In this document: in pieces, positions 430-53,271 of the stretch
How the letters are laid out: each line of letters opens with the position of its first letter
Position numbering within the stretch: the stretch's first letter is position 1
Virus record (IMG/VR): IMGVR_UViG_3300025930_000004
Location: 1-53,472 of that record
Direction: 5' to 3' (one strand)
DNA: 53,472 nt
DNA from: a virus
Lineage: Duplodnaviria > Caudoviricetes
Translations under genes and position numbers: made by a program
The notes under the pieces: generated by a model
What the model was told of the DNA's origin: nothing
The model's input: only the letters and a program-made list of their open reading frames with translations
Database searches by the model: none

Positions 430-484
430 GAGTATGCCGGGCCGAACGGAAGCGACCGGCGGTGGTAGTACATAAAAAATCTCC

Positions 485-859
485 AGAACACTCCCCGATT
501 TATCGGGGGGAGGAATGGTAGCTATCTCTCTATCTCCCCTAATTGCTCGAACTGTCGAAAAGTGGTATAATTACTCCTGTGCAAAGGCACCGTGCCCCCA
601 CGGACGTTTCGCACCTTAACAAGAGAAACTTACGGGTTGTCGGCCATAGGTCTGGGCCGACGTAAAAGTTCTCCAGCGTAGAAACCTTCAAGCTATGCTT
701 AGGATTCTACTAACATGCAGAGGGTGGTATATCCGTTCTCTGCGGGCGCTCACCAGTGCGCCTATCGTGTCGATGTCGGTCAACACCTCAGAGCATCGAG
801 GTTGCGACCGGGTTAGTCTTCAGATGCAAGCTCCCCAGCTTTAGCGGGGAGTAACTGAC
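485..859 (+). mobile_element. Non-autonomous IS200/IS605-family mini-element with TnpB omega-RNA-like right end; no tnpA or tnpB
   Basis: Left subterminal hairpin CTCCCCGATTTATCGGGGGGAG (491-512); right end CAAGCTCCCCAGCTTTAGCGGGGAGTAACTGAC ending at 859; GGGCGC..GCCTATCGTGTC motif at 744-771 recalled from tnpB 3' ends. Left boundary is approximate. Confidence 0.7.
543..571 (+). promoter_or_regulatory. Promoter inside the mini-element
   Basis: TTGCTC-17 nt-TATAAT with extended TG. Confidence 0.65.
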
Positions 860-880
860 TTGAGTTCCTCCTGCTGGTTG
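578..880 (+). ncRNA. Structured omega-RNA-like transcript plus flanking guide-like segment (860-~879)
   Basis: At least six consecutive hairpins and no ORF, lying between a promoter and a terminator. Confidence 0.55.
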
Positions 881-883
881 TAT

Positions 884-922
884 AAAAAAGAGAGTCGGCG
901 CTGCATAGGCCGACTCTCTTTT
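884..922. terminator. Bidirectional intrinsic terminator
   Basis: A6-GAGAGTCGGC / GCCGACTCTC-T4. Confidence 0.8.
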
Positions 923-13648: not shown

Positions 13649-13896
13649 TGAGCCGCCGTCGCTTCCTGTCCCGCCTCCTGCGCTTTCTGCCTGCTGTGGC
13701 CGCTGCGCCGTTGGCACAATTCACGCCGCCTGAGCGTGAGCCGCAGACGCCGGAACAAAAGCGGCTGGACAAGGCAGAGGGGCAAATCTTTTACTTGCTC
13801 GATTCAGACCGCCGCCAGAATGGACGGCTGGACAGGATTGAACAGAAATTGCCGACGATGGACCCGTTTGGGCGCTACCGAAAGAAAACGATGTGA
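13645..13896 (+). CDS. Small protein with twin-arginine-like N-terminus and coiled coil
   Basis: MMSRRRFLSRLLRFLPAVAAAP. Confidence 0.6.
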   Translation: MMSRRRFLSRLLRFLPAVAAAPLAQFTPPEREPQTPEQKRLDKAEGQIFYLLDSDRRQNGRLDRIEQKLPTMDPFGRYRKKTM

Positions 13897-15242
13897 TGCA
13901 GCCGGTTAATCAGCTTATTGACCTGGATGACTACGAAGGTCATCCAAGAAACTATAACCGCCATCCTGACCAGCAGATACAGCGCATCATGGCCAGCCTG
14001 CGCAAGTTCGGCCAGCCTCGCAGTATCGTAGTGCATCGGGGTCAATTCCTGGCCGGTCATGGGGTGGCGGAAGCGGCCAGGCGGCTGGGCTGGAAGCAAT
14101 TGCGGGCTGACGTGCTGCCTGATGACTACCCCGAACACCTGGCGCTGGCCTATGTGGTGGCAGACAATGAACTGAGTAGACAGAGCGACCCAGACCAGGC
14201 GGCGCTTGCGGCCATCTTGCAGGAGGTGGGCCGGGTTGATGCGGAGTTGGTAGAGGCGGCGGGCTTTGGCAAGAAAGAGTTAGCGGATTTGTTGGCGAGT
14301 TTGACGCCGCCGCAATTGACCGTTGCCGACCCTGGCGCACAAACAGACCGAGCCGAGGAGCTACAAGAAAAGTGGGAGACGGCAGACAACCAGCTATGGC
14401 GCATCGGGGAACATTTCGTTATCTGTGGCGATTGCCGTTCCCCTGACACCTGGGGCCGGTTACTTGATGCGGCTGATGTGGAGAAAGTCAACGGCGTGTT
14501 TACCTCACCACCCTACGCAGAACAGCGCAAAGAACAGTACGGGGGCATTCCGACCGCTGAGTATGTAGATTGGTGGGAAGCGGTGCAGGCGAATGTACGG
14601 GGCAATTTGGCCGGGGATGGGTCATTCTTTGTGAATATCAAGCCGCACTGCGAGGATGGGCAACGGGCGCTTTACGTGATGGACTTAGTAACGGCAATGG
14701 TAAGGCGCTGGGGCTGGCGGTATGTGGAGGAGGCTTGTTGGGTGCATCAAGGCTTCCCAGGTGAACCGCAACAAAGATTCCAAAATGCTTTTGAGCCAAT
14801 CTATATGTTCTCTCAAGGCAAGGTCAAGTTTTGCCCTGAGAATGTAGCTTATGAGAGTGATTCGGTAATGCAGTATGAGCCGGGATTGAATGTTAGGCAA
14901 CGCCAACGCTCTACCGGCGAATTAACGCCAATGGCAAACGTAAAACACAGTAAGGGTAAAGCCTACCCAAGAAATGTATTGCAGATAAGCAGTGCAACCG
15001 CCGATGTGCCGGAACACGCCGCCGCCTTCCCCGTCGCCCTGCCCGATTTCTTCATCCGTGCTTATTCCGATCCCGGTGACGTGTGGTGCGATCCGTTCCT
15101 GGGCAGCGGCACAACCATTGTAGCGGCCCACCAGAACAAGCGGCGGGGGCTGGGGATTGAGAAGTTGCCTAAATATGTAGCGGTCATTCTTGAAAGGCTG
15201 CAAGCGGTCGTGGGCCAATCGCCCGAACTAATGGATGGTTGA
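13893..15242 (+). CDS. ParB-like N-domain fused to N4/N6 DNA methyltransferase (beta class)
   Basis: HPRNYNRH..LAGHG..ADNE; TSPPY; HAAAFP; DPFLGSGTT. Confidence 0.9.
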   Translation: MMQPVNQLIDLDDYEGHPRNYNRHPDQQIQRIMASLRKFGQPRSIVVHRGQFLAGHGVAEAARRLGWKQLRADVLPDDYPEHLALAYVVADNELSRQSDPDQAALAAILQEVGRVDAELVEAAGFGKKELADLLASLTPPQLTVADPGAQTDRAEELQEKWETADNQLWRIGEHFVICGDCRSPDTWGRLLDAADVEKVNGVFTSPPYAEQRKEQYGGIPTAEYVDWWEAVQANVRGNLAGDGSFFVNIKPHCEDGQRALYVMDLVTAMVRRWGWRYVEEACWVHQGFPGEPQQRFQNAFEPIYMFSQGKVKFCPENVAYESDSVMQYEPGLNVRQRQRSTGELTPMANVKHSKGKAYPRNVLQISSATADVPEHAAAFPVALPDFFIRAYSDPGDVWCDPFLGSGTTIVAAHQNKRRGLGIEKLPKYVAVILERLQAVVGQSPELMDG

Positions 15243-15247
15243 ACATC

Positions 15248-15721
15248 ATGGCGCTGAACAATGCACAAGACGCCATCATTGACGACCGCCGCCGCCTGGT
15301 TGCATCGCTCATTCTGCGCAAGCGCACGCAGCGGGAGGTTGTGACTGCGCTGACTATACAAGGCTATCGCAACCCAGACACCGGCGAACCGTGGAGCCTT
15401 GCCACCGTCAATGCCGATGTGCAGGCGCTACGCAGGCAATGGCGCAAAGAGGCAAGGCAGGATACAGCCGAACACAAGACTCGCCAGTTTGCCGAGTTGA
15501 ACGAGGTGATGAAGCAAGGGTGGGTAGACAACGATTTGAATGCGGTGTTGCGGGCGATGAAACAGCAGGCGGAATTGCTGGGGCTGGATGCGCCGACCGA
15601 GGAGGATCAGTTCGTTGTGGGCATGACATTGCCGGAATGGGAGAAGCGCCAAGCGACCAGCCGCCAGCAGGCAGCCGAGACGATGGAATTGTTTGACGAT
15701 GAGTTGGACACCGAGGACTAA
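15248..15721 (+). CDS. Putative terminase small subunit
   Basis: HTH-like TVNADVQALR and AELLGLDAP motif; directly upstream of the large subunit. Confidence 0.7.
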   Translation: MALNNAQDAIIDDRRRLVASLILRKRTQREVVTALTIQGYRNPDTGEPWSLATVNADVQALRRQWRKEARQDTAEHKTRQFAELNEVMKQGWVDNDLNAVLRAMKQQAELLGLDAPTEEDQFVVGMTLPEWEKRQATSRQQAAETMELFDDELDTED

Positions 15722-18452
15722 ACGCTGTGCGTTCCTTATCGACAACCTTGACTTGCCAACGGCCACAGGCTACCCGGCGGCGGTGTGGGAGGGGTTTCAG
15801 ATAAGGCACCTTGAAGATGACAGCACATTCCGAGCCGAGGTCAAGAGCCGCCAGATTGCCTGGTCGTGGCTCAGTGCAGCGGAAGCGGTAGCGGTGGGTC
15901 TGCTGAACAGAGAAAGCAGCGTCTTTATCAGCATCAATTTAGACGAGGCGAAAGAGAAGATACGCTACGTCCACAATGTCATTGACGGTCTACCCCGCTC
16001 TATGCGGCCTAGACTGGTGACAAATAACAGAACCGAACTGGAATTCGACAACGGCGCCCGCCTGATGAGCTTACCGGCCATTCCGCCCAGAGGCAAGGCG
16101 CAGATGAACGTATACCTTGATGAGTTTGCGCACGTCAGAGAGGATAACGTGATATACACCGCAGCCCTACCGATGATTACAAAAGGCAACCGGCGGCTGA
16201 GGATGGCCAGCTCACCGATGGGGGCAAGCGGGCGATTCTGGGAGGTATTTAAGGAATCACTCAGGAAGTATCCCGGCTACACCCGCAAGTCGACGCCGTG
16301 GTGGGAGGTACAGGCGTTTTGTCTGGACGTGCGAGAAGCCAGGAAACAGGGCGGCGTGCTGACTACCGAACAGATGGTCGAACAATACGGCAATGAGCGG
16401 GTGAAAGCCATCTACGCCAATATGCCGATAGAAGATTTTATGCAGGAGTATTGTTGTCACCTGGCGAGTACAGAGGTGATGCTGGCGAATGGACTCACAA
16501 AACGGTTCATTGATTTAGATATTGGCGACCAGTTAGTGTATAATAATGGTTGTCAAGTCTCACCATGCACCGTTGAGGAGTTCAGGAGAATTGGAATGCG
16601 CAGCATCATCGAGATCACAATGGAGACAGGGGCAACCTTCGCAGCGAGTACAGGGCACAAGATGAAAGGTAGGCAGGGTAAAGAGCCTATCGACACAATA
16701 GAGGAGGTTAGCTATGTTTTTGCGCCTCACCGTGTTGATGGGGAGCAAGAGGCGCTTGCTCGTCTTGTGGGGATGAATTTGGGCGACGGAACGATAGCGC
16801 AACGCGCCGGACGATACAAGAAAAAGAGTGGCGAGGTGAGCCTGTATCCTTACTTCCAGGCGTCCTTTTACTCTCAGAAGCAAGAGGACTTAGAAGACGT
16901 TGCAAGTGATTTTGTCATGGCGGGATTGGCAGAAACAAAACCCAACGTGCTTTTCAAAAAGGGTAGCAGACTGGAATACGACGCCTTTCAATTGCATGTT
17001 TCCCAGAAGGCGGCGCAGCGACTGGTTGATGCTGGCTGCGTGGTGGGGAAGAAGATAGCGACGGATTTTGCTATTCCTGATTGGATTCTAAACGGAGGGC
17101 CGACTGTCAAGCGTGAGTTTTTGGCTGCATTGTTTGGCGCTGAAGGCTCTACGCCGCGAGACAAGAATCAAAAACAAAAAAACAAGTTGCCACAAACACT
17201 TTATCTGAGGATGTTCAAAACCGAGCCGATGCCCCGTTTCTTCGAGCAGGTGCAGGGGATGTTGCAGGAGTTCGGCGTACAGTCGACCTTGACCAGCCGA
17301 CAATTAGATGGGCGTGTGAGCTATTCGATCATGGTTCACTCGACAGCAGAAAACGCTTTGGTGTTTTGGAGAAACGTGGGCTATCGCTATGCGCGGCGCA
17401 AGGAGGAAATGGCGTTTCTGTGGTCTCACTATCTGCAAGCCTATCAGCACGAAAGAGTCATGCGCAAGCAAGAGGCGACCGCATTGCGGGCTGGTGGATT
17501 GACCTACAAAGCGATGGCCGATCATCTGGGCATTAGCGCGCAAGGGGCATATAACCTGACGAACAAGCCGATCATGCGCTCATCGTGGGACTTTCCACAG
17601 TTCGGTGAGTGGGTCGGCACTCGCTATCAAGATGGCACGCTCTACATTCGAGTAACAGACCGGCGCGTGATTGGCGAAGATGAGGTTTTTAATATCAGGG
17701 TCGACTCGCCTGATCACTCCTATTTGTTGGCAGATGGGCTCGACAATTACAACTGCTTATTCGTTGATGAAACCACCGCTTGGATTACCTGGGAGGAAAT
17801 CAAGGAAGCGCAGGCGCTGGTGCCCGACCTGGCCTGCTACCTGGCCAAAGCCACCGGCACGTTGACGCCGGAGATACACGAAGCCATTGAACACTTGCGG
17901 CGGGGGATAGCCGTCAGTCGCACAGAGCAAGCCTATACCGTAGGGGTGGACATTGGGCGCACCCGCAACACCACAGAGATATACGCCATTGGCTTGACCA
18001 CCACAGACACCTACCCGCTGAGGCTGGCGCTATCGCTGGATAACGTGACCTTTGACGACCAGCTATCGGTAATTGTGGAAGTGTTGGACCGGCTGCCAGT
18101 GGTGAGCATGATGATTGACGAAACCGGCATCGGGCGCAACCTGGCAGAGAACGCAGAGAAGTATCACCCGGCCAAAGTACAGGGCGTGACGTTCACCGGG
18201 CCGCTAAAGGCACTGTGGGCGACCAATGCGAAGATGCTGATACAGGGACACAAAACGCCGTTGCCAGTGGATAAAGACATGGCCTATCAGTTCCACAGCA
18301 TCAAAAAGCTGGTGACCGCCAGCCGTAACTTGGCATTTGATACAGCGACGAATGAGAAGCACCACGCCGACAAGTTTTGGGCCTGGGCGTTGGCACTAGC
18401 CGGGGCTCATGATGGACAGGGCGGCGGCGGCTTTGTGTTGAGGTATGCGTGA
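15699..18452 (+). CDS. terL: Terminase large subunit containing an intein
   Basis: KSRQIAWS Walker A, YLDEFAH Walker B, SSPMG, GVDIGR, IDETGIG and HHADKFWA nuclease motifs. Confidence 0.95.
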   Translation: MSWTPRTKRCAFLIDNLDLPTATGYPAAVWEGFQIRHLEDDSTFRAEVKSRQIAWSWLSAAEAVAVGLLNRESSVFISINLDEAKEKIRYVHNVIDGLPRSMRPRLVTNNRTELEFDNGARLMSLPAIPPRGKAQMNVYLDEFAHVREDNVIYTAALPMITKGNRRLRMASSPMGASGRFWEVFKESLRKYPGYTRKSTPWWEVQAFCLDVREARKQGGVLTTEQMVEQYGNERVKAIYANMPIEDFMQEYCCHLASTEVMLANGLTKRFIDLDIGDQLVYNNGCQVSPCTVEEFRRIGMRSIIEITMETGATFAASTGHKMKGRQGKEPIDTIEEVSYVFAPHRVDGEQEALARLVGMNLGDGTIAQRAGRYKKKSGEVSLYPYFQASFYSQKQEDLEDVASDFVMAGLAETKPNVLFKKGSRLEYDAFQLHVSQKAAQRLVDAGCVVGKKIATDFAIPDWILNGGPTVKREFLAALFGAEGSTPRDKNQKQKNKLPQTLYLRMFKTEPMPRFFEQVQGMLQEFGVQSTLTSRQLDGRVSYSIMVHSTAENALVFWRNVGYRYARRKEEMAFLWSHYLQAYQHERVMRKQEATALRAGGLTYKAMADHLGISAQGAYNLTNKPIMRSSWDFPQFGEWVGTRYQDGTLYIRVTDRRVIGEDEVFNIRVDSPDHSYLLADGLDNYNCLFVDETTAWITWEEIKEAQALVPDLACYLAKATGTLTPEIHEAIEHLRRGIAVSRTEQAYTVGVDIGRTRNTTEIYAIGLTTTDTYPLRLALSLDNVTFDDQLSVIVEVLDRLPVVSMMIDETGIGRNLAENAEKYHPAKVQGVTFTGPLKALWATNAKMLIQGHKTPLPVDKDMAYQFHSIKKLVTASRNLAFDTATNEKHHADKFWAWALALAGAHDGQGGGGFVLRYA
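16455..17753 (+). mobile_element. Intein (433 aa) with LAGLIDADG homing endonuclease
   Basis: QEYC|CHLASTEVMLANG ... ASTGHK ... VFNIRV..HSYLLADGLDNYN|CLF; LVGMNLGDG and FLAALFGAEGS. Confidence 0.9.
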
Positions 18453-18586: not shown

Positions 18587-18759
18587 TTATCGGGCTCACT
18601 CTGGGCCTCGTCTGGATAGCCTTGCAGCGTAGAGCGCCAGAGCCTACTCGCTGGATGGTGAGCGTGGAGCCGGCGAGTAGGCCCGCAGGGTGGGGCTGGG
18701 TGGGGCTGTTTCTGCTTGTTGACTTGATTGTATTGGCGTGGGTATGGATGGGAGCGTAA
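18571..18759 (+). CDS. Small two-TM protein
   Basis: 62 aa with two hydrophobic segments; TAATG coupling to next gene. Confidence 0.6.
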   Translation: MSWPLIIGLTLGLVWIALQRRAPEPTRWMVSVEPASRPAGWGWVGLFLLVDLIVLAWVWMGA

Positions 18760-19835
18760 TGAATCCATTGGCTCGTTTGTCTACAGCAACGACCGCTTTG
18801 GCGGAAGCAAAAAATCTGGACGACATTTTGCCGATCTTGAATCTGGCCGACGCCGCCCGCACGTATGCCAAAGCCGCCAAGCTAGGGCTAGAAGCGCAAA
18901 ACCACGCTGCCGAAATTCAGTTGAGAGCGGCACGCAAGGCGGGCCAAATCTTGCAGACGATGAAAAAGAACGGTGAATTAGATAAAGGCGGTCGGCCTTC
19001 AGAAAACCGATCACGTCTTGTTATCGGTTTGTCTGATCTCGGTGTCAAACCTATGCAGTCTCACCGTTGGCAAAAGGTGGCCGATGTGCCCGAAGAATTA
19101 TTCGAGACGCAGATCGCCACAGTGCCCGCACAGGGGAAGGAGTTGACTACCGCCGGTATGTTGAAAATTGCCAAAGCCAGTGAGCGAAACGGAAAGCCTG
19201 ACGCCATGGGGTCGGGCGACGGCTCTTTCGACTTGCTCCACAGCCCAATCGAGTCGCTTATCCTGCCCGCCGATTCCGTGGATGCCATTGTCACCGACCC
19301 ACCTTATCCGCAAGAGTATTTGCCGCTTTTCTCTGTGCTTTCCGATTTGGCAGCGCACGTGCTGAAGCCGGGCGGCTCTTTGTTTGTCATGGTTGGTCAA
19401 TCCTATCTACCAGAGGTGATTTGCCGACTCTCCGAGAAAATGTGCTATCACTGGACGCTTGCCTATATGACACCCGGGGGACAAGCGGTGCAACTATGGC
19501 AACGCAAAGTAAACACCTTTTGGAAGCCGATCCTTTGGTTCACCAAAGGCGACTATACCGGCTCGTGGCTGGGCGATGTAGCTAACAGCAAAGTCAACGA
19601 CAACGACAAGCGATTCCACGGCTGGGGTCAGTCGGAAAGCGGGATGATTGATTTGCTGCAACGATGCAGCGAGCCGCTTCAGACAATTCTCGATCCGTTC
19701 TGTGGTGGTGGTGCGACTGGTGTAGCGGCGCTTGCAACCGGACGTCATTTTATCGGGGCCGACAAAGAGGCTGAGTGTATCGAGACTTGTCGCTCTCGCC
19801 TGGTGGGAATGAGCCATGCAGACGTACAGCATTGA
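18759..19835 (+). CDS. DNA methyltransferase with helical N-terminal domain
   Basis: VTDPPY; HGWGQS; LDPFCGGGATG. Confidence 0.9.
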   Translation: MNPLARLSTATTALAEAKNLDDILPILNLADAARTYAKAAKLGLEAQNHAAEIQLRAARKAGQILQTMKKNGELDKGGRPSENRSRLVIGLSDLGVKPMQSHRWQKVADVPEELFETQIATVPAQGKELTTAGMLKIAKASERNGKPDAMGSGDGSFDLLHSPIESLILPADSVDAIVTDPPYPQEYLPLFSVLSDLAAHVLKPGGSLFVMVGQSYLPEVICRLSEKMCYHWTLAYMTPGGQAVQLWQRKVNTFWKPILWFTKGDYTGSWLGDVANSKVNDNDKRFHGWGQSESGMIDLLQRCSEPLQTILDPFCGGGATGVAALATGRHFIGADKEAECIETCRSRLVGMSHADVQH

Positions 19836-38100: not shown

Positions 38101-38562
38101 GTCGGCGCATCCGGCAACAATCTGCAACTCAATCATTCGACTGTGACCGGCTCGGCTAATAAGTGGATTTTGGTCGCCATCGGGCAGCCGTTCGTAGCCA
38201 CCGCGACGGCTGCATTCAGCGGCACGCCGTTGACAGGTATTCGCCCGGTCACCGTGGCCTTCACCGATGCGTCAACAGCAGACGGCACGACGATTACCAG
38301 CCGGGCTTGGGATTTTGGCGACGGGTCCACCAGCACCAGCACCAATCCTACCCACGAGTACACCACAGCCGGCAGCTACAGCGTGACCCTGACGGTCAGC
38401 GACGGCACGGCCACCAGCACGCTTGTCAAGTCCGATTACGTGGTAATCAGTGACCCACCGGACGCCACATTGCCGGTTACGTCGCTGGTGCTGGCAAGCG
38501 CCATTCCTGAACCGTTGCAGCCGTACAACGATGTCCTAGCAAGTGCGGAGGTGGTCCCGTGA
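35179..38562 (+). CDS. Tailspike-like protein: beta-helix domain plus C-terminal PKD domain
   Basis: YVHP..G.G....PWNTL..PGDIIRLRG; xxN ladders; WDFGDGSTSTSTNPTHEYTTAGSYSVTLTV. Confidence 0.85.
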   Translation: MTIRYVHPGTGANTGAGGTGAPWNTLGYAVGGASATAPGDIIRLRGTTYTERVVFGVSGTAGNPITIEADTGYSPTIEGISTQTGIIVMPNGTKYITFGDGITVSYGHAAPGGNHRFSLVAVTGVDSEFVTILNLTVHRDYSTDLSVLAASVWQEFGITITDATDCTVDSCTVRGICKGINLNDQCMRATVKNCLTEYTVQSGCVIGSSAGVIRGIVIYRNRFGLSGREDGLQFIPPNGLTDAQKAADDSNQGTLLLYNEIFFNGEGGFDMKSTKHVVIEGNILHGMAGSNDGFHPTLGQNTGSPGCINAGANTNSEAPVIFRNNIFYDCQSGPSTRIGWKFHNNTILNMRRTWEGTPEPLAKGVGIGQARSSNPALGVRNNIFAGNAADAELFAGQNQPGNECDLDYNLYASGAWSDATSGNTYTTLAAWQGRLAANNWRYGKDGHSIYVGGATPTARHNAIKFVSVTAYPTGDPDDYDFGIADDSPAKGTGGYLCRITGGAGSGTAVPVEDANWFATNYGRDDYQDDQRIFFNGQERTITAVNYATNTLTINATATWGNLEPIYHVFPGQVASATPDIGALNYLEADGGGTPPPPTAGGPGGRASVRGALITTTGNQTFTFATPLTGQPIAWRFTITEATADDNATDNAVIGRGWAWDNGGTIVQHAWSTRSRHGQATSATSGRTITDGCLMLNNPTSTAIDGQASFVSGDANGVTINITDAFSAGFLVTITAFMATNAYFSTFAIQQTVNTYTTVTPGFTPNYIEVVTFNRAIPATTGGVRISHGFATYDGATITQQCMYIGERTTSAPSEVVAHLRNDYVGIEATDGAAALTNGLQISDMGSTDFRINTKVANHTQTDAEGFVFCLLFDQEVYSGVITTPTATNSAYDYAVGFEPGSADVIASTLTAVNTADSTGLAGAYAAGSWDGTLQFSASIADEDAAATTNTQSRSDDRFVNLDKHDGSAGHIATVVGASGNNLQLNHSTVTGSANKWILVAIGQPFVATATAAFSGTPLTGIRPVTVAFTDASTADGTTITSRAWDFGDGSTSTSTNPTHEYTTAGSYSVTLTVSDGTATSTLVKSDYVVISDPPDATLPVTSLVLASAIPEPLQPYNDVLASAEVVP

Positions 38563-39269
38563 TACAGGGTGAGGGCTATACGCTATATCAGGGCGATTGT
38601 CTCAACGTGTTGCCGACCTTTCGGGATCGGCAATTTGACCTTGCTTTGACCGATCCGCCCTATGGCATAGGCGAATCAGCAGCACGAGTTGCGTCGCGAG
38701 TGAACCTCGCGACGCCCATTGATTATGGTGCGTTCAGTTGGGACAGTGAACCGGCCTCACCTGTAGCCATAGAGCATATCCGGCGCATATCTCAGAAGCA
38801 AATTATCTTTGGTGGCAATTACTTTGACCTTCCACCGTCAAAATGCTGGCTTGTATGGGACAAGCTAAATAGTGGCGATTTTGCCGATTGCGAACTGGCT
38901 TGGACGAATCTTGACAAGGCTGTTCGCATCTTTCGCCATATGTGGAATGGCATGTTGCGGGCGTCCGAACGTGACTGCAGGCGAGTCCATCCAACACAAA
39001 AGCCCGTCGCCTTGATGCGCTGGTGCATCGAACAGGCTGGACACCCGCAAACCATCATTGACCCATATATGGGTTCTGGCTCTGTGGGTATAGCGACAAT
39101 CCAGAGCGGTATTCATTTTGTTGGCATCGAAAAGGATGCACGTTACTTCGCCATCGCCCACAAACGCATTGCGGACGCAGCCAGAGCCGTCGCAGGGCTA
39201 CCCAAGCAGTTATCGGGCCGGGTTGAGGATTACAGCGAAAGCCCGCTATTCGCAGGAGTAACACCGTGA
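38559..39269 (+). CDS. N4/N6 DNA methyltransferase inserted in the tail module
   Basis: LYQGDCL, LTDPPYG, HPTQKPVALM, DPYMGSGS. Confidence 0.92.
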   Translation: MIQGEGYTLYQGDCLNVLPTFRDRQFDLALTDPPYGIGESAARVASRVNLATPIDYGAFSWDSEPASPVAIEHIRRISQKQIIFGGNYFDLPPSKCWLVWDKLNSGDFADCELAWTNLDKAVRIFRHMWNGMLRASERDCRRVHPTQKPVALMRWCIEQAGHPQTIIDPYMGSGSVGIATIQSGIHFVGIEKDARYFAIAHKRIADAARAVAGLPKQLSGRVEDYSESPLFAGVTP

Positions 39270-51840: not shown

Positions 51841-52857
51841 CTATTCGTATCGGCGTGTCCAGGGCAGATGTAGCCTACCCGCTGCCTCTTTCTTCGCCCG
51901 TTCGCCTCGTCGGTCGTATCCGGCGGTCGTGTTGGCGCTGGAGTGGCCCATCAGTTTTTGCACAGTCACCAGGTCCACGCCAGCATCTAGTAAGTCACCT
52001 GCGAAGGTGCGGCGCATGTCGTGCGGGCCAAACGCTTTGACGCCTGCCACTGCCGCCCGGCGCTGTACCATCTTCCAGACTGAGCCCGGCGTGATGGGCC
52101 GATTGATGATGTGCCCGTTGCGGACGGAGCGGAACAGCGGCCCGTCGCCGGAGCCTCGCACATGCAGCCAGTCGGCCATAATGTCGTCAACCGGCGTTGT
52201 GTAAAGCGTGCGCTGCTTTCGTCCTTTGCCGAACACGATCAGTTGGCTGATCTCCCGGCTGTAGTCGGCTAGTTCCAGGTTGGCGATTTCCGCCCTGCGC
52301 AGCCCGCAACAGACGCCCACGCCGATAATTGCCCCATCTCTGGGTCCGGCTGGGCCGGAGTCATCCCGGCAGGTATTCATCAGCGCCGCAATTTCTCCGC
52401 TGGTCAGCGCACGCCCGGCGGCCTGGTCTGGGCCTTCGCCTCGGATAGACGGCACTAGAAGCGCCCGCTGCATCGACTCTGCATCCATCAAGCCGAGTTT
52501 CCATGCTGCCGTCATCACGCCACGCAGCGCAGACATATACTTTCTGCCCGTCGCCGGGCTGTAGTGTTCGGTGAGCTTGGCACGGACAGCGTTGACGTGC
52601 TGCCATTTGAGTTGGTGCCACGGAATCGCCGCCGGGCTGCATTCGCCATTTGTCAGGATGGCGGCAATAACGCCCAACGCAGCGCCCATCGAGCGGCGTG
52701 ACGACTTGCCCAGCCCTGCAAGATAGGCCAGGGTCGGCTGTTCGGCTGCGTGGCTGCTGAGAACTGGCAGTAGCCGGTCGTTCGGTAGTATCTCTACATA
52801 CATTGTCGGAAGGACGGTGAACACGCAATTGACATCGAAACCAATATCCTGTACCAT
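51841..52857 (-). CDS. Tyrosine recombinase (integrase / XerC-like)
   Basis: GLRRAEI, GKGRKQR, HDMRRT, LMGHSSANTTAGYD; AAGGAG RBS. Confidence 0.93.
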   Translation of the reverse strand: MVQDIGFDVNCVFTVLPTMYVEILPNDRLLPVLSSHAAEQPTLAYLAGLGKSSRRSMGAALGVIAAILTNGECSPAAIPWHQLKWQHVNAVRAKLTEHYSPATGRKYMSALRGVMTAAWKLGLMDAESMQRALLVPSIRGEGPDQAAGRALTSGEIAALMNTCRDDSGPAGPRDGAIIGVGVCCGLRRAEIANLELADYSREISQLIVFGKGRKQRTLYTTPVDDIMADWLHVRGSGDGPLFRSVRNGHIINRPITPGSVWKMVQRRAAVAGVKAFGPHDMRRTFAGDLLDAGVDLVTVQKLMGHSSANTTAGYDRRGERAKKEAAGRLHLPWTRRYE

Positions 52858-52977: not shown

Positions 52978-53235
52978 TCATCGTTTTGCGGTCAATTTGG
53001 CAGCCAATTCCTCATCGAAATCAAAGTTGTGTAGCCGGGAAAATCGGCGTAACTCATCGACTGAAATGCGAAAAGTCCCTTGCGGGCCAACACGACGATG
53101 ATCGATAAGTCCCTGCTTGCACCAACGCCAAATATTTTCCCGGCTCTGGCCGATGACCTGGCTAGCCTGGGTTAAAGAAAGTTCTGGCATACAGCGCAGT
53201 CTCATTGATGGGTGCTGCGTAAGCGTTGCAATCAT
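52978..53235 (-). CDS. Excisionase-like (HTH_17/MerR-type) DNA-binding protein, possibly leaderless
   Basis: LSLTQASQVIGQSRENIWRWCKQGLI..FRISVDELRRF; ATG 53235 lies at the expected TSS (alternative start 53190). Confidence 0.8.
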   Translation of the reverse strand: MIATLTQHPSMRLRCMPELSLTQASQVIGQSRENIWRWCKQGLIDHRRVGPQGTFRISVDELRRFSRLHNFDFDEELAAKLTAKR

Positions 53236-53242
53236 GAAATTT

Positions 53243-53271
53243 ATTATAAGCCTGTTCCGGCCAAATTGCAA
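53243..53271 (-). promoter_or_regulatory. Leftward early promoter
   Basis: TTGCAA-17 nt-TATAAT on the minus strand. Confidence 0.75.

Follow-up and report, generated by a model that had tools for sequence, protein, structure and literature searches.

The guide RNA of TnpB systems of the ISDra2 type (the omega-RNA, or reRNA) is built on a scaffold that overlaps the 3′ end of tnpB and the right end of the transposon, and its guide is provided by the 3′ flank. A pseudoknot in this scaffold pairs an internal loop with the bases located just before the guide.

Palindrome-associated transposable elements (PATEs; PMC3119063) are protein-less derivatives of IS200/IS605 elements. According to the passages of Meers et al. 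that bear on the subject (10.1101/2023.03.14.532601), PATEs ‘often encode omega-RNAs’, for which TnpB has to be provided in trans, and the corresponding passages of another study report that TnpB is equally active when its omega-RNA is supplied in trans (10.1101/2023.11.20.567912). PATEs are also carried by viruses: the archaeal tailed virus HRTV-DL1 is described, in the relevant passages of PMC10544981, as having a 489-bp PATE that is also found in the host genome and one end of which is very highly transcribed in infection.

Here we analyse the complete IMG/VR virus record IMGVR_UViG_3300025930_000004 (53,472 bases, terminal repeat of ~99 nt; the window hereafter is this whole stretch), which holds a protein-less element close to its start. 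As in PATEs, there is no ORF, the subterminal hairpins are of the tnpB type, copies are scattered, and the omega-RNA would need TnpB and TnpA in trans. What may set it apart from published PATEs is that the family to which it belongs has a leader of ~130 nt, absent from 70 related tnpB loci; the window copy, moreover, resides in a bacterial temperate phage. It shares with the HRTV-DL1 element the condition of being virus-borne and protein-less, the HRTV-DL1 copy being shared with its host as well; that system is formed by an archaeal virus and its host, and the passages covered of its description hold neither a sequence relation to our element nor an omega-RNA analysis. Like the ISDra2-type reRNA (PMC10097598), the window scaffold overlaps what was the 3′ end of tnpB together with the right end, pairs a loop with the tail in a pseudoknot and has the 3′ flank as its guide; unlike it, the window scaffold stands alone behind its own promoter. 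Temperate phages with a TnpB-type guide RNA are also known from TldR systems; there, as far as the covered part of the report goes, the TldR protein is encoded beside its guide and targets a host promoter (10.1101/2023.11.30.569447), whereas the window phage lacks a protein partner and its guide matches the element's own flank only. Virus-borne PATEs and PATEs with omega-RNAs are therefore already in print, and it is the leader that appears to be the new point with respect to the passages considered.

Boundaries and ends of the element

The features that delimit the element are the following.

471–473 (+): CAT, target/TAM-like motif of the element family, adjoining the left end
474–859 (+): whole protein-less mini-element, 386 bp, with full-length homology to loci L003, L082, L084 and L088, whose flanks differ
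474–530 (+): left end, with a subterminal hairpin at 491–510 and 81–93% identity to the left ends of L072 and L011

The original prediction had set the start of the element at 485. Comparison between copies shifts it to 474, directly after the CAT at 471–473. In L012, L013, L023 and L041 the similarity between copies in one genome ends just upstream of TCAT, and all family members share a right terminus reading ...T(G/T)AC; the element hence spans 474–859 and is preceded by CAT. With boundaries judged by eye, CAT was found at the left boundary of 14 out of 15 protein-less copies. The complete target motif is ACAT in the window and YCAT in most copies. The right terminus, TGAC, had been correctly located (856–859), and so had the flank that follows it (860–879).

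The two related subterminal hairpins that had been described are indeed present, at 491–510 and 831–851, and a repeat search delivered hairpin arms (490–509 and 833–852) that are 75% complementary. The longest ORF overlapping 474–859 is 50 aa, in keeping with the proposed absence of coding capacity. The stacked hairpins noticed between the ends are also borne out by folding, as the region 480–925 gives z=−5.0 on the + strand and z=−4.5 on the − strand, with none of 100 shuffles folding as well.

Had the ends matched no IS200/IS605 element, the classification would have been in doubt; both of them match the TnpB-carrying elements L072 and L011, with 81–93% identity on the left (475–521) and 85–91% on the right (827–859). 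The TnpB elements with matching ends come from Chloroflexota metagenome-assembled genomes (MAGs) and viral contigs, and the proteins of L072 and L011 contain the Pfam domains OrfB_IS605 and Cas12f1-like_TNB (PF07282 at 84–92 bits, plus PF01385). Related TnpB proteins match solved TnpB and Cas12f chains, ISDra2 TnpB being matched only distantly (E ~1e-9). A left hairpin of the window type precedes the tnpB ORF in L004 and L072. The sequence at 474–859 is thus almost certainly a PATE-like, non-autonomous derivative of a TnpB-only IS200/IS605 element, and the putative parent clade, as found here, is mainly in Chloroflexota.

An omega-RNA scaffold with a covarying pseudoknot

The right-hand part of the element contains the features listed below.

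717–743 (+): stem A, an 11-bp hairpin in the same place as stem A of TnpB elements, over the AAxNI codons
741–859 (+): omega-RNA scaffold core, matched by model R1
745–762 (+): pseudoknot hairpin, part of the scaffold core
754–757 (+): 5′ half of the pseudoknot, CAGT, pairing with 854–857
767–771 with 823–827 (+): closing helix around an enlarged stem C, part of the scaffold core
831–851 (+): right-end hairpin, part of the scaffold core
854–859 (+): 3′ half of the pseudoknot, ACTG (854–857), and last bases of the element, TGAC (856–859), with covariation in the family

To assess the scaffold independently of the mini-elements, a covariance model (R1) was produced from an alignment (A3) of the last 100–143 nt of 18 tnpB-linked elements, with every mini-element left out. 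Searching 93,836 bases from five sources at E≤10 yielded four matches in total, one of which is in the window, at 741–859 on the + strand (43.1 bits, E=2.8e-9). The viral contig L003 scored 74.1 bits (E=3.9e-17), and the two further matches are weak (E=0.27 and 0.57). Pairing in A3, pseudoknot included, amounts to 91.5% of cells, with two-sided changes in 20 of the 30 pairs, as compared with 33–43% in slid controls.

The complementarity between the loop CAGT and the terminal ACTG had been proposed to be pseudoknot-like. This is supported by covariation of the loop-to-tail helix across the 18 TnpB elements: 94.4% of its cells are paired, with two-sided changes in three out of six pairs, and the variants GTCAGA/TCTGAC, GTCAAC/GTTGAC, GTAAGT/ACTTAC, GTCATG/CATGAC and GTAAAC/GTTTAC are found. 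Ends, scaffold model and pseudoknot covariation hence agree with the main reading of the original prediction, that is, a protein-less IS200/IS605 mini-element with an omega-RNA scaffold. A remnant of the TnpB C-terminus is detectable by tblastn in mini-elements (residues 326–378 of the L083 protein against L088, E=2e-8); in the window the same kind of search gives E=0.1 only.

The window copy has the lowest R1 score of its family (43 bits vs 53–88), its pseudoknot is down to 4 bp when most TnpB-linked copies have 6, stem C has been enlarged by a 33-nt insertion, and the target motif is ACAT instead of YCAT. The low score, the short pseudoknot and the ACAT motif make an inert relic a serious rival: the element would have arrived as a PATE, would now be neither a guide RNA nor mobile, and would be tolerated in the non-essential spacer between int/xis and cI. 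The phage also lacks TnpB and TnpA, as such a relic would allow. Against this, no helix of the window scaffold has been lost and the closing helix contains compensated pairs, when a relic is expected to lose pairing; the −10 box, preceded by TG, agrees with TATAAT at every position, and the leader described below still scores 88.5 bits. We consider the relic rather unlikely on this evidence, if clearly worth keeping in mind.

Rfam was searched with positions 1–2000 on both strands at E≤10; the + strand gave no match, and the collection holds no suitable omega-RNA model. The − strand gave one match, of HEARO (RF02033), at 764–859 (19.5 bits, E=0.28); the part of the model involved is its first stem. 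HEARO resembles our element in being an IS200/IS605-family guide RNA whose start lies at a hairpin of the transposon end, and the match could mean that the element encodes a minus-strand omega-RNA of the IscB/IsrB type, with its guide at 860–880, upstream on that strand. This nonetheless falls well short of the gathering score (83), and the right-end hairpin that makes up the matched part is near-palindromic and looks alike on both strands, which accounts for a match on the − strand. R1 and R2 (the model of the leader) match the + strand only, the relatives are all linked to tnpB on the + strand, with no iscB relatives, and a terminator occupies the place needed for a − strand promoter. We therefore rejected the match, and an RNA of this type is almost certainly not what the element encodes.

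A conserved leader behind a predicted inward-facing promoter

The transcription signals and the leader are located as follows.

543–571 (+): inward-facing promoter as read from the sequence, TTGCTC, 17-nt spacer, TGgTATAAT, with a predicted start at ~579
579–716 (+): structured 5′ leader specific to mini-elements, matched by model R2 with 88.5 bits
886–922 (both strands): two-way intrinsic terminator of the phage, with perfect 14-bp arms (886–899/909–922), an A-run and a T-run

The extended −10 promoter that had been proposed is found at TG 563–564 and TATAAT 566–571. Its −35 box (TTGCTC, 543–548, spacer of 17) agrees with the consensus at only three of six positions, which is why it escaped a sigma-70 scan. 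The four mini-elements aligned with the window and seven out of eight genomic copies have a TGnTAnAnT box at the equivalent site, the exception being L196, which reads TGTAGTAGA. In full elements, the left-end promoter box is 6–12 nt before the ATG of tnpB. Upstream of the element, at 401–429 on the + strand, there is a further promoter-like site that points into it, made up of TTGACG and TAGACT with 17 nt between them, plus an upstream TG; this was the sole promoter reported by the consensus scan in 1–1500.

In mini-elements, the left-end promoter is joined to the scaffold by the ~130-nt leader, which stands in the place of the tnpB ORF. Among 81 sources, which include 70 TnpB-bearing loci, R2 matched its five training copies only; the leader is thus absent from all 70 tnpB loci. 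In Chloroflexota genomes with related tnpB elements, R2 found 17, 1 and 4 matches in three out of five genomes, and in all eight genomic loci that were fetched the leader directly abuts a same-strand R1 scaffold match. When the phylum was sampled, 4 out of 151 genomes had 3–11 copies each. Across nine lineages, the 20 pairs of the leader have 91.6% of cells paired and 13 of them show two-sided changes (29–47% in slid controls); the alignment had been fitted to the model, which biases these figures somewhat towards the structure. Invariant GGUUG and GUAAAA motifs flank a covarying hairpin, and the leader gave no match in Rfam. With respect to the passages and abstracts considered on PATEs and related systems, this conserved leader appears to be new.

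The terminator at 886–922 had been described as following the element end. Its position is right and its hairpin is present in the fold predictions of both strands, yet it does not form part of the element: as judged by eye, the flanks of other copies have no comparable hairpin and T-run, and the terminator is hence the phage's own. The consensus scan had missed it because of its 9-nt loop. In our model it would stop both the transcript of the element and the operon on the cI side.

The element lies in the lysogeny region of a temperate phage

The phage is temperate and tailed. Its lysogeny genes, assigned through Pfam, are these.

1757–2215 (−): cI-like repressor
51841–52857 (−): integrase
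52978–53271 (−): HTH_17 excisionase-like gene

Pfam also identifies structural and packaging genes (terminase, portal, scaffold and tape-measure). The mini-element occupies a non-coding spacer of ~1.2 kb that has the xis and int genes on one side and the end of the repressor-side operon on the other. A tRNA/tmRNA scan of the element region found none, so that we could discard the idea of an RNA gene fragment borne by attP.

The portal protein has only 22–25% identity to portals of actinophages, and among 30 candidate stretches in species genomes none was a relative of it. Two other observations were made on the coding part of the phage. The large terminase (919 aa, 15693–18452, + strand) contains a LAGLIDADG_3 domain at residues 472–562, which suggests an intein or an inserted homing endonuclease. 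In addition, there are three separate genes for N6/N4 DNA methylases on the + strand, at 13893–15242, 18738–19835 and 38559–39269.

Copies at other sites and the enzymes outside the phage

A blastn search against 50,697 phage records gave no match. Initial scans with exact patterns recovered L003 only from viral contigs and nothing from species genomes. L003 (6464–6833, − strand) is a second copy with unrelated flanks, showing 73% identity, column by column, over the aligned stretch. Scanning for the left hairpin led to L004, where hairpin and promoter are followed by a tnpB ORF. With the L004 protein as query, 61 loci were obtained from 159 candidate stretches in species genomes, most of them in Chloroflexota MAGs, and nine viral loci from 37 candidates.

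A metagenome scan for the right end gave nine stretches. L082, L084 and L088 are mini-elements of the window build, L089 is a duplicate of L003, and L081 and L087 are partial copies. L083 and L085 are full tnpB elements with an identical right end, so that candidate cognate partners, as judged by this end, exist outside the phage. The flanks are all different among the five full-length mini-elements and the eight genomic copies, and the ends of genomic mini-elements match those of the tnpB elements resident in the same genome, as in the pairs L194/L012 and L196/L014.

Several other structures were recovered along with these. L086 (8068–8349, − strand) is a 282-bp mini-element with the same ends and a different, shorter interior, and the partial copy L087, on the same contig, corresponds to its right-hand part. 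L010 (1445–1586, + strand) is a 142-bp form without scaffold, in which left end and promoter are combined with a right-end hairpin that is a perfect 14-bp palindrome. The viral loci L005, L007 and L008 share the left-hairpin core, CCCCGATTYATCGGGG, in another repeat context, flanked by ATTGCGAG and CGTGGCAAT, and L006 has it twice in tandem; these four may be REP-like hairpins or ends of other insertion sequences. The pattern match in L009 was judged to be due to chance.

The original prediction held that the phage has no tnpB or iscB, and indeed none of its 44 ORFs has a Pfam match to TnpB or IscB. Six-frame searches of the phage delivered 10.9 bits with PF07282, for a cut-off of 26.3, and nothing with either PF01797 (Y1 tnpA) or a related TnpB protein. 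The predicted RNA is thus an orphan, and any action of it would depend on proteins supplied in trans. Y1_Tnp (tnpA) genes are found in three of the four Chloroflexota genomes that hold related elements.

The putative guide is the flank of the insertion site

The sequence in the position of the guide is the following.

860–879 (+): guide-like flank, phage DNA in the position of TnpB guides, containing the anti-Shine-Dalgarno sequence CCTCC

It occurs once in the window, allowing up to three mismatches. Searching for it beside a TAM had been suggested as a way to find its target; the search does find the flank of the element itself, and no plausible target in a host. The 18-mer of the guide was found in 8 viral and 95 genome stretches, with ~17 expected in genomes by our own arithmetic, and this excess is explained by the presence in the flank of CCTCC, the complement of the Shine-Dalgarno sequence. 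Three of its 104 occurrences come after CAT (~1.6 expected by chance, also by our own arithmetic) and none after an element end. None of the matches in viral and species genomes is an element-free allele of the phage site, and a viral scan found no relative of the insertion site.

One of the CAT-adjacent matches, in a Chloroflexia MAG (L136, 7408–7425), has all 18 nt of the guide right behind CCAT, and next to it begins the gene of a signal-peptide protein with its start codon. Its genome contains no R1 matches, and for this reason we treated it as a chance match and not as a guide target.

These data bear on the possibility that the RNA has been exapted by the phage, using a TnpB of the host or a dead TldR-like relative to cut related element-free phages, with superinfection exclusion or homing between phages as the outcome, to act on a host locus or to soak up the nuclease. 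Such a role would suit an element with its own promoter and a terminator in the lysogeny-side spacer beside the cI operon, with a conserved leader, and the passages considered of two reports describe phage TldR with guide RNAs that regulate host flagellin (10.1101/2023.11.30.569447, 10.1101/2025.07.22.666180); the L136 match before a secreted-protein gene could be taken in the same sense. Yet the guide is the flank in every copy, with no sign of having been selected, the matches are inflated by the anti-Shine-Dalgarno motif, those after CAT number three where chance would provide ~1.6, and the genome of L136 is devoid of R1 matches. Nor is there a TldR-like gene nearby: a test for TldR found neither a TnpB-like ORF in the phage nor a credible target in a host. 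We regard exaptation as improbable. The reprogramming of a host TnpB or TldR, which had been put forward, is hence without support, the guide being mere flank as in the other copies, and of the functions offered it is the PATE-like passenger that fits best.

Mini-elements were seen to lie in the gap that separates the Shine-Dalgarno box from the ATG of an oppositely oriented gene, a placement through which the guide regularly contains anti-Shine-Dalgarno sequence. In the first 18 nt past the right end, the most frequent tetramer is CTCC (11 of 15 mini-elements, 4 of 19 tnpB elements), which is not among the top tetramers of a control stretch (61–78). Six out of seven mini-elements have an antisense ORF of 57 aa or more starting from the boundary CAT; that of the window is only 16 aa long. 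Among TnpB elements, 12 of 18 have a boundary ATG that opens an antisense ORF of 50 aa or more, vs 50% of control ATGs (P=0.12), so that the start-codon test alone is not significant.

Fixation at the phage site and relatives of the element in an RNA library

In DNA contigs from other samples (X2, X5 and X6) the sequence at the element site is identical to the window. X2 and X5 span both junctions, and X6 covers 497–972 only, with the right junction. Contigs joining the flanks over the element were absent from three DNA runs, in the parts that these cover, uncovered parts being uninformative. Across these samples the insertion is fixed at the phage site. This identity and the absence of an empty site are what an inert relic would also produce, and they count in favour of that reading.

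A soil metatranscriptome (X9) contained several contigs of 93–307 nt that are 85–90% alike to 606–832, that is, to leader and scaffold. They are strandless and belong to relatives, not to the window copy, and give a weak hint that the element family is transcribed.

Discussion

The homology of ends and scaffold, the covariation, the lack of the enzymes in the phage and the existence of copies at other sites are established, and so is the co-occurrence of mini-elements with tnpB and tnpA in Chloroflexota genomes. From them we infer transcription, loading into TnpB, cleavage and mobility of the window copy, which would proceed as follows. From its parent tnpB element the window copy retains the left end, the tnpB promoter and the last ~120–155 nt of the tnpB region with the right end, and the ~130-nt leader takes the place of the ORF. 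The promoter would drive an RNA of ~350 nt, from ~579 to the terminator at 886–922, with the scaffold and then the guide (860–879) in its 3′ part. In a host assumed to have a cognate TnpB, this RNA would be loaded in trans, and TnpB would cut the element-free phage site (CAT followed by 860–879), leading to retention or homing of the element, which a host Y1 TnpA could move in trans. We believe this complete model, a trans-acting guide RNA of a selfish mini-element, which agrees with what has been published for such elements, to be probably right, with ample room for doubt. The likeliest role is that of a selfish passenger: its guide matches the site of the element itself when unoccupied, and the host would have to supply TnpB and TnpA in trans.

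A further-reaching reading would see the mini-elements, instead of as copies in decay, as a distinct lineage of stand-alone guide-RNA genes that parasitize TnpB and TnpA in trans and co-diversify with the resident tnpB. The phage copy would then be an RNA-only homing drive or exclusion device, through which the TnpB of the host cuts element-free sibling phages or excised donor sites, the leader would serve stability, processing or loading where the context of a tnpB mRNA is missing, and siting between Shine-Dalgarno box and ATG would be a strategy. We put this forward as speculation that is doubtful as it stands.

Should it be no more than a passenger, we would be dealing with an ordinary PATE, and its main use would be to link an uncultured soil phage to Chloroflexota. 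It would also be a compact object on which to test the effect of the leader on RNA stability and loading, the use of omega-RNAs in trans and RNA-only drive in phages. On the working model, phages can carry the guide RNA of a TnpB and leave the nuclease behind, so that guide and enzyme would come from different genomes.
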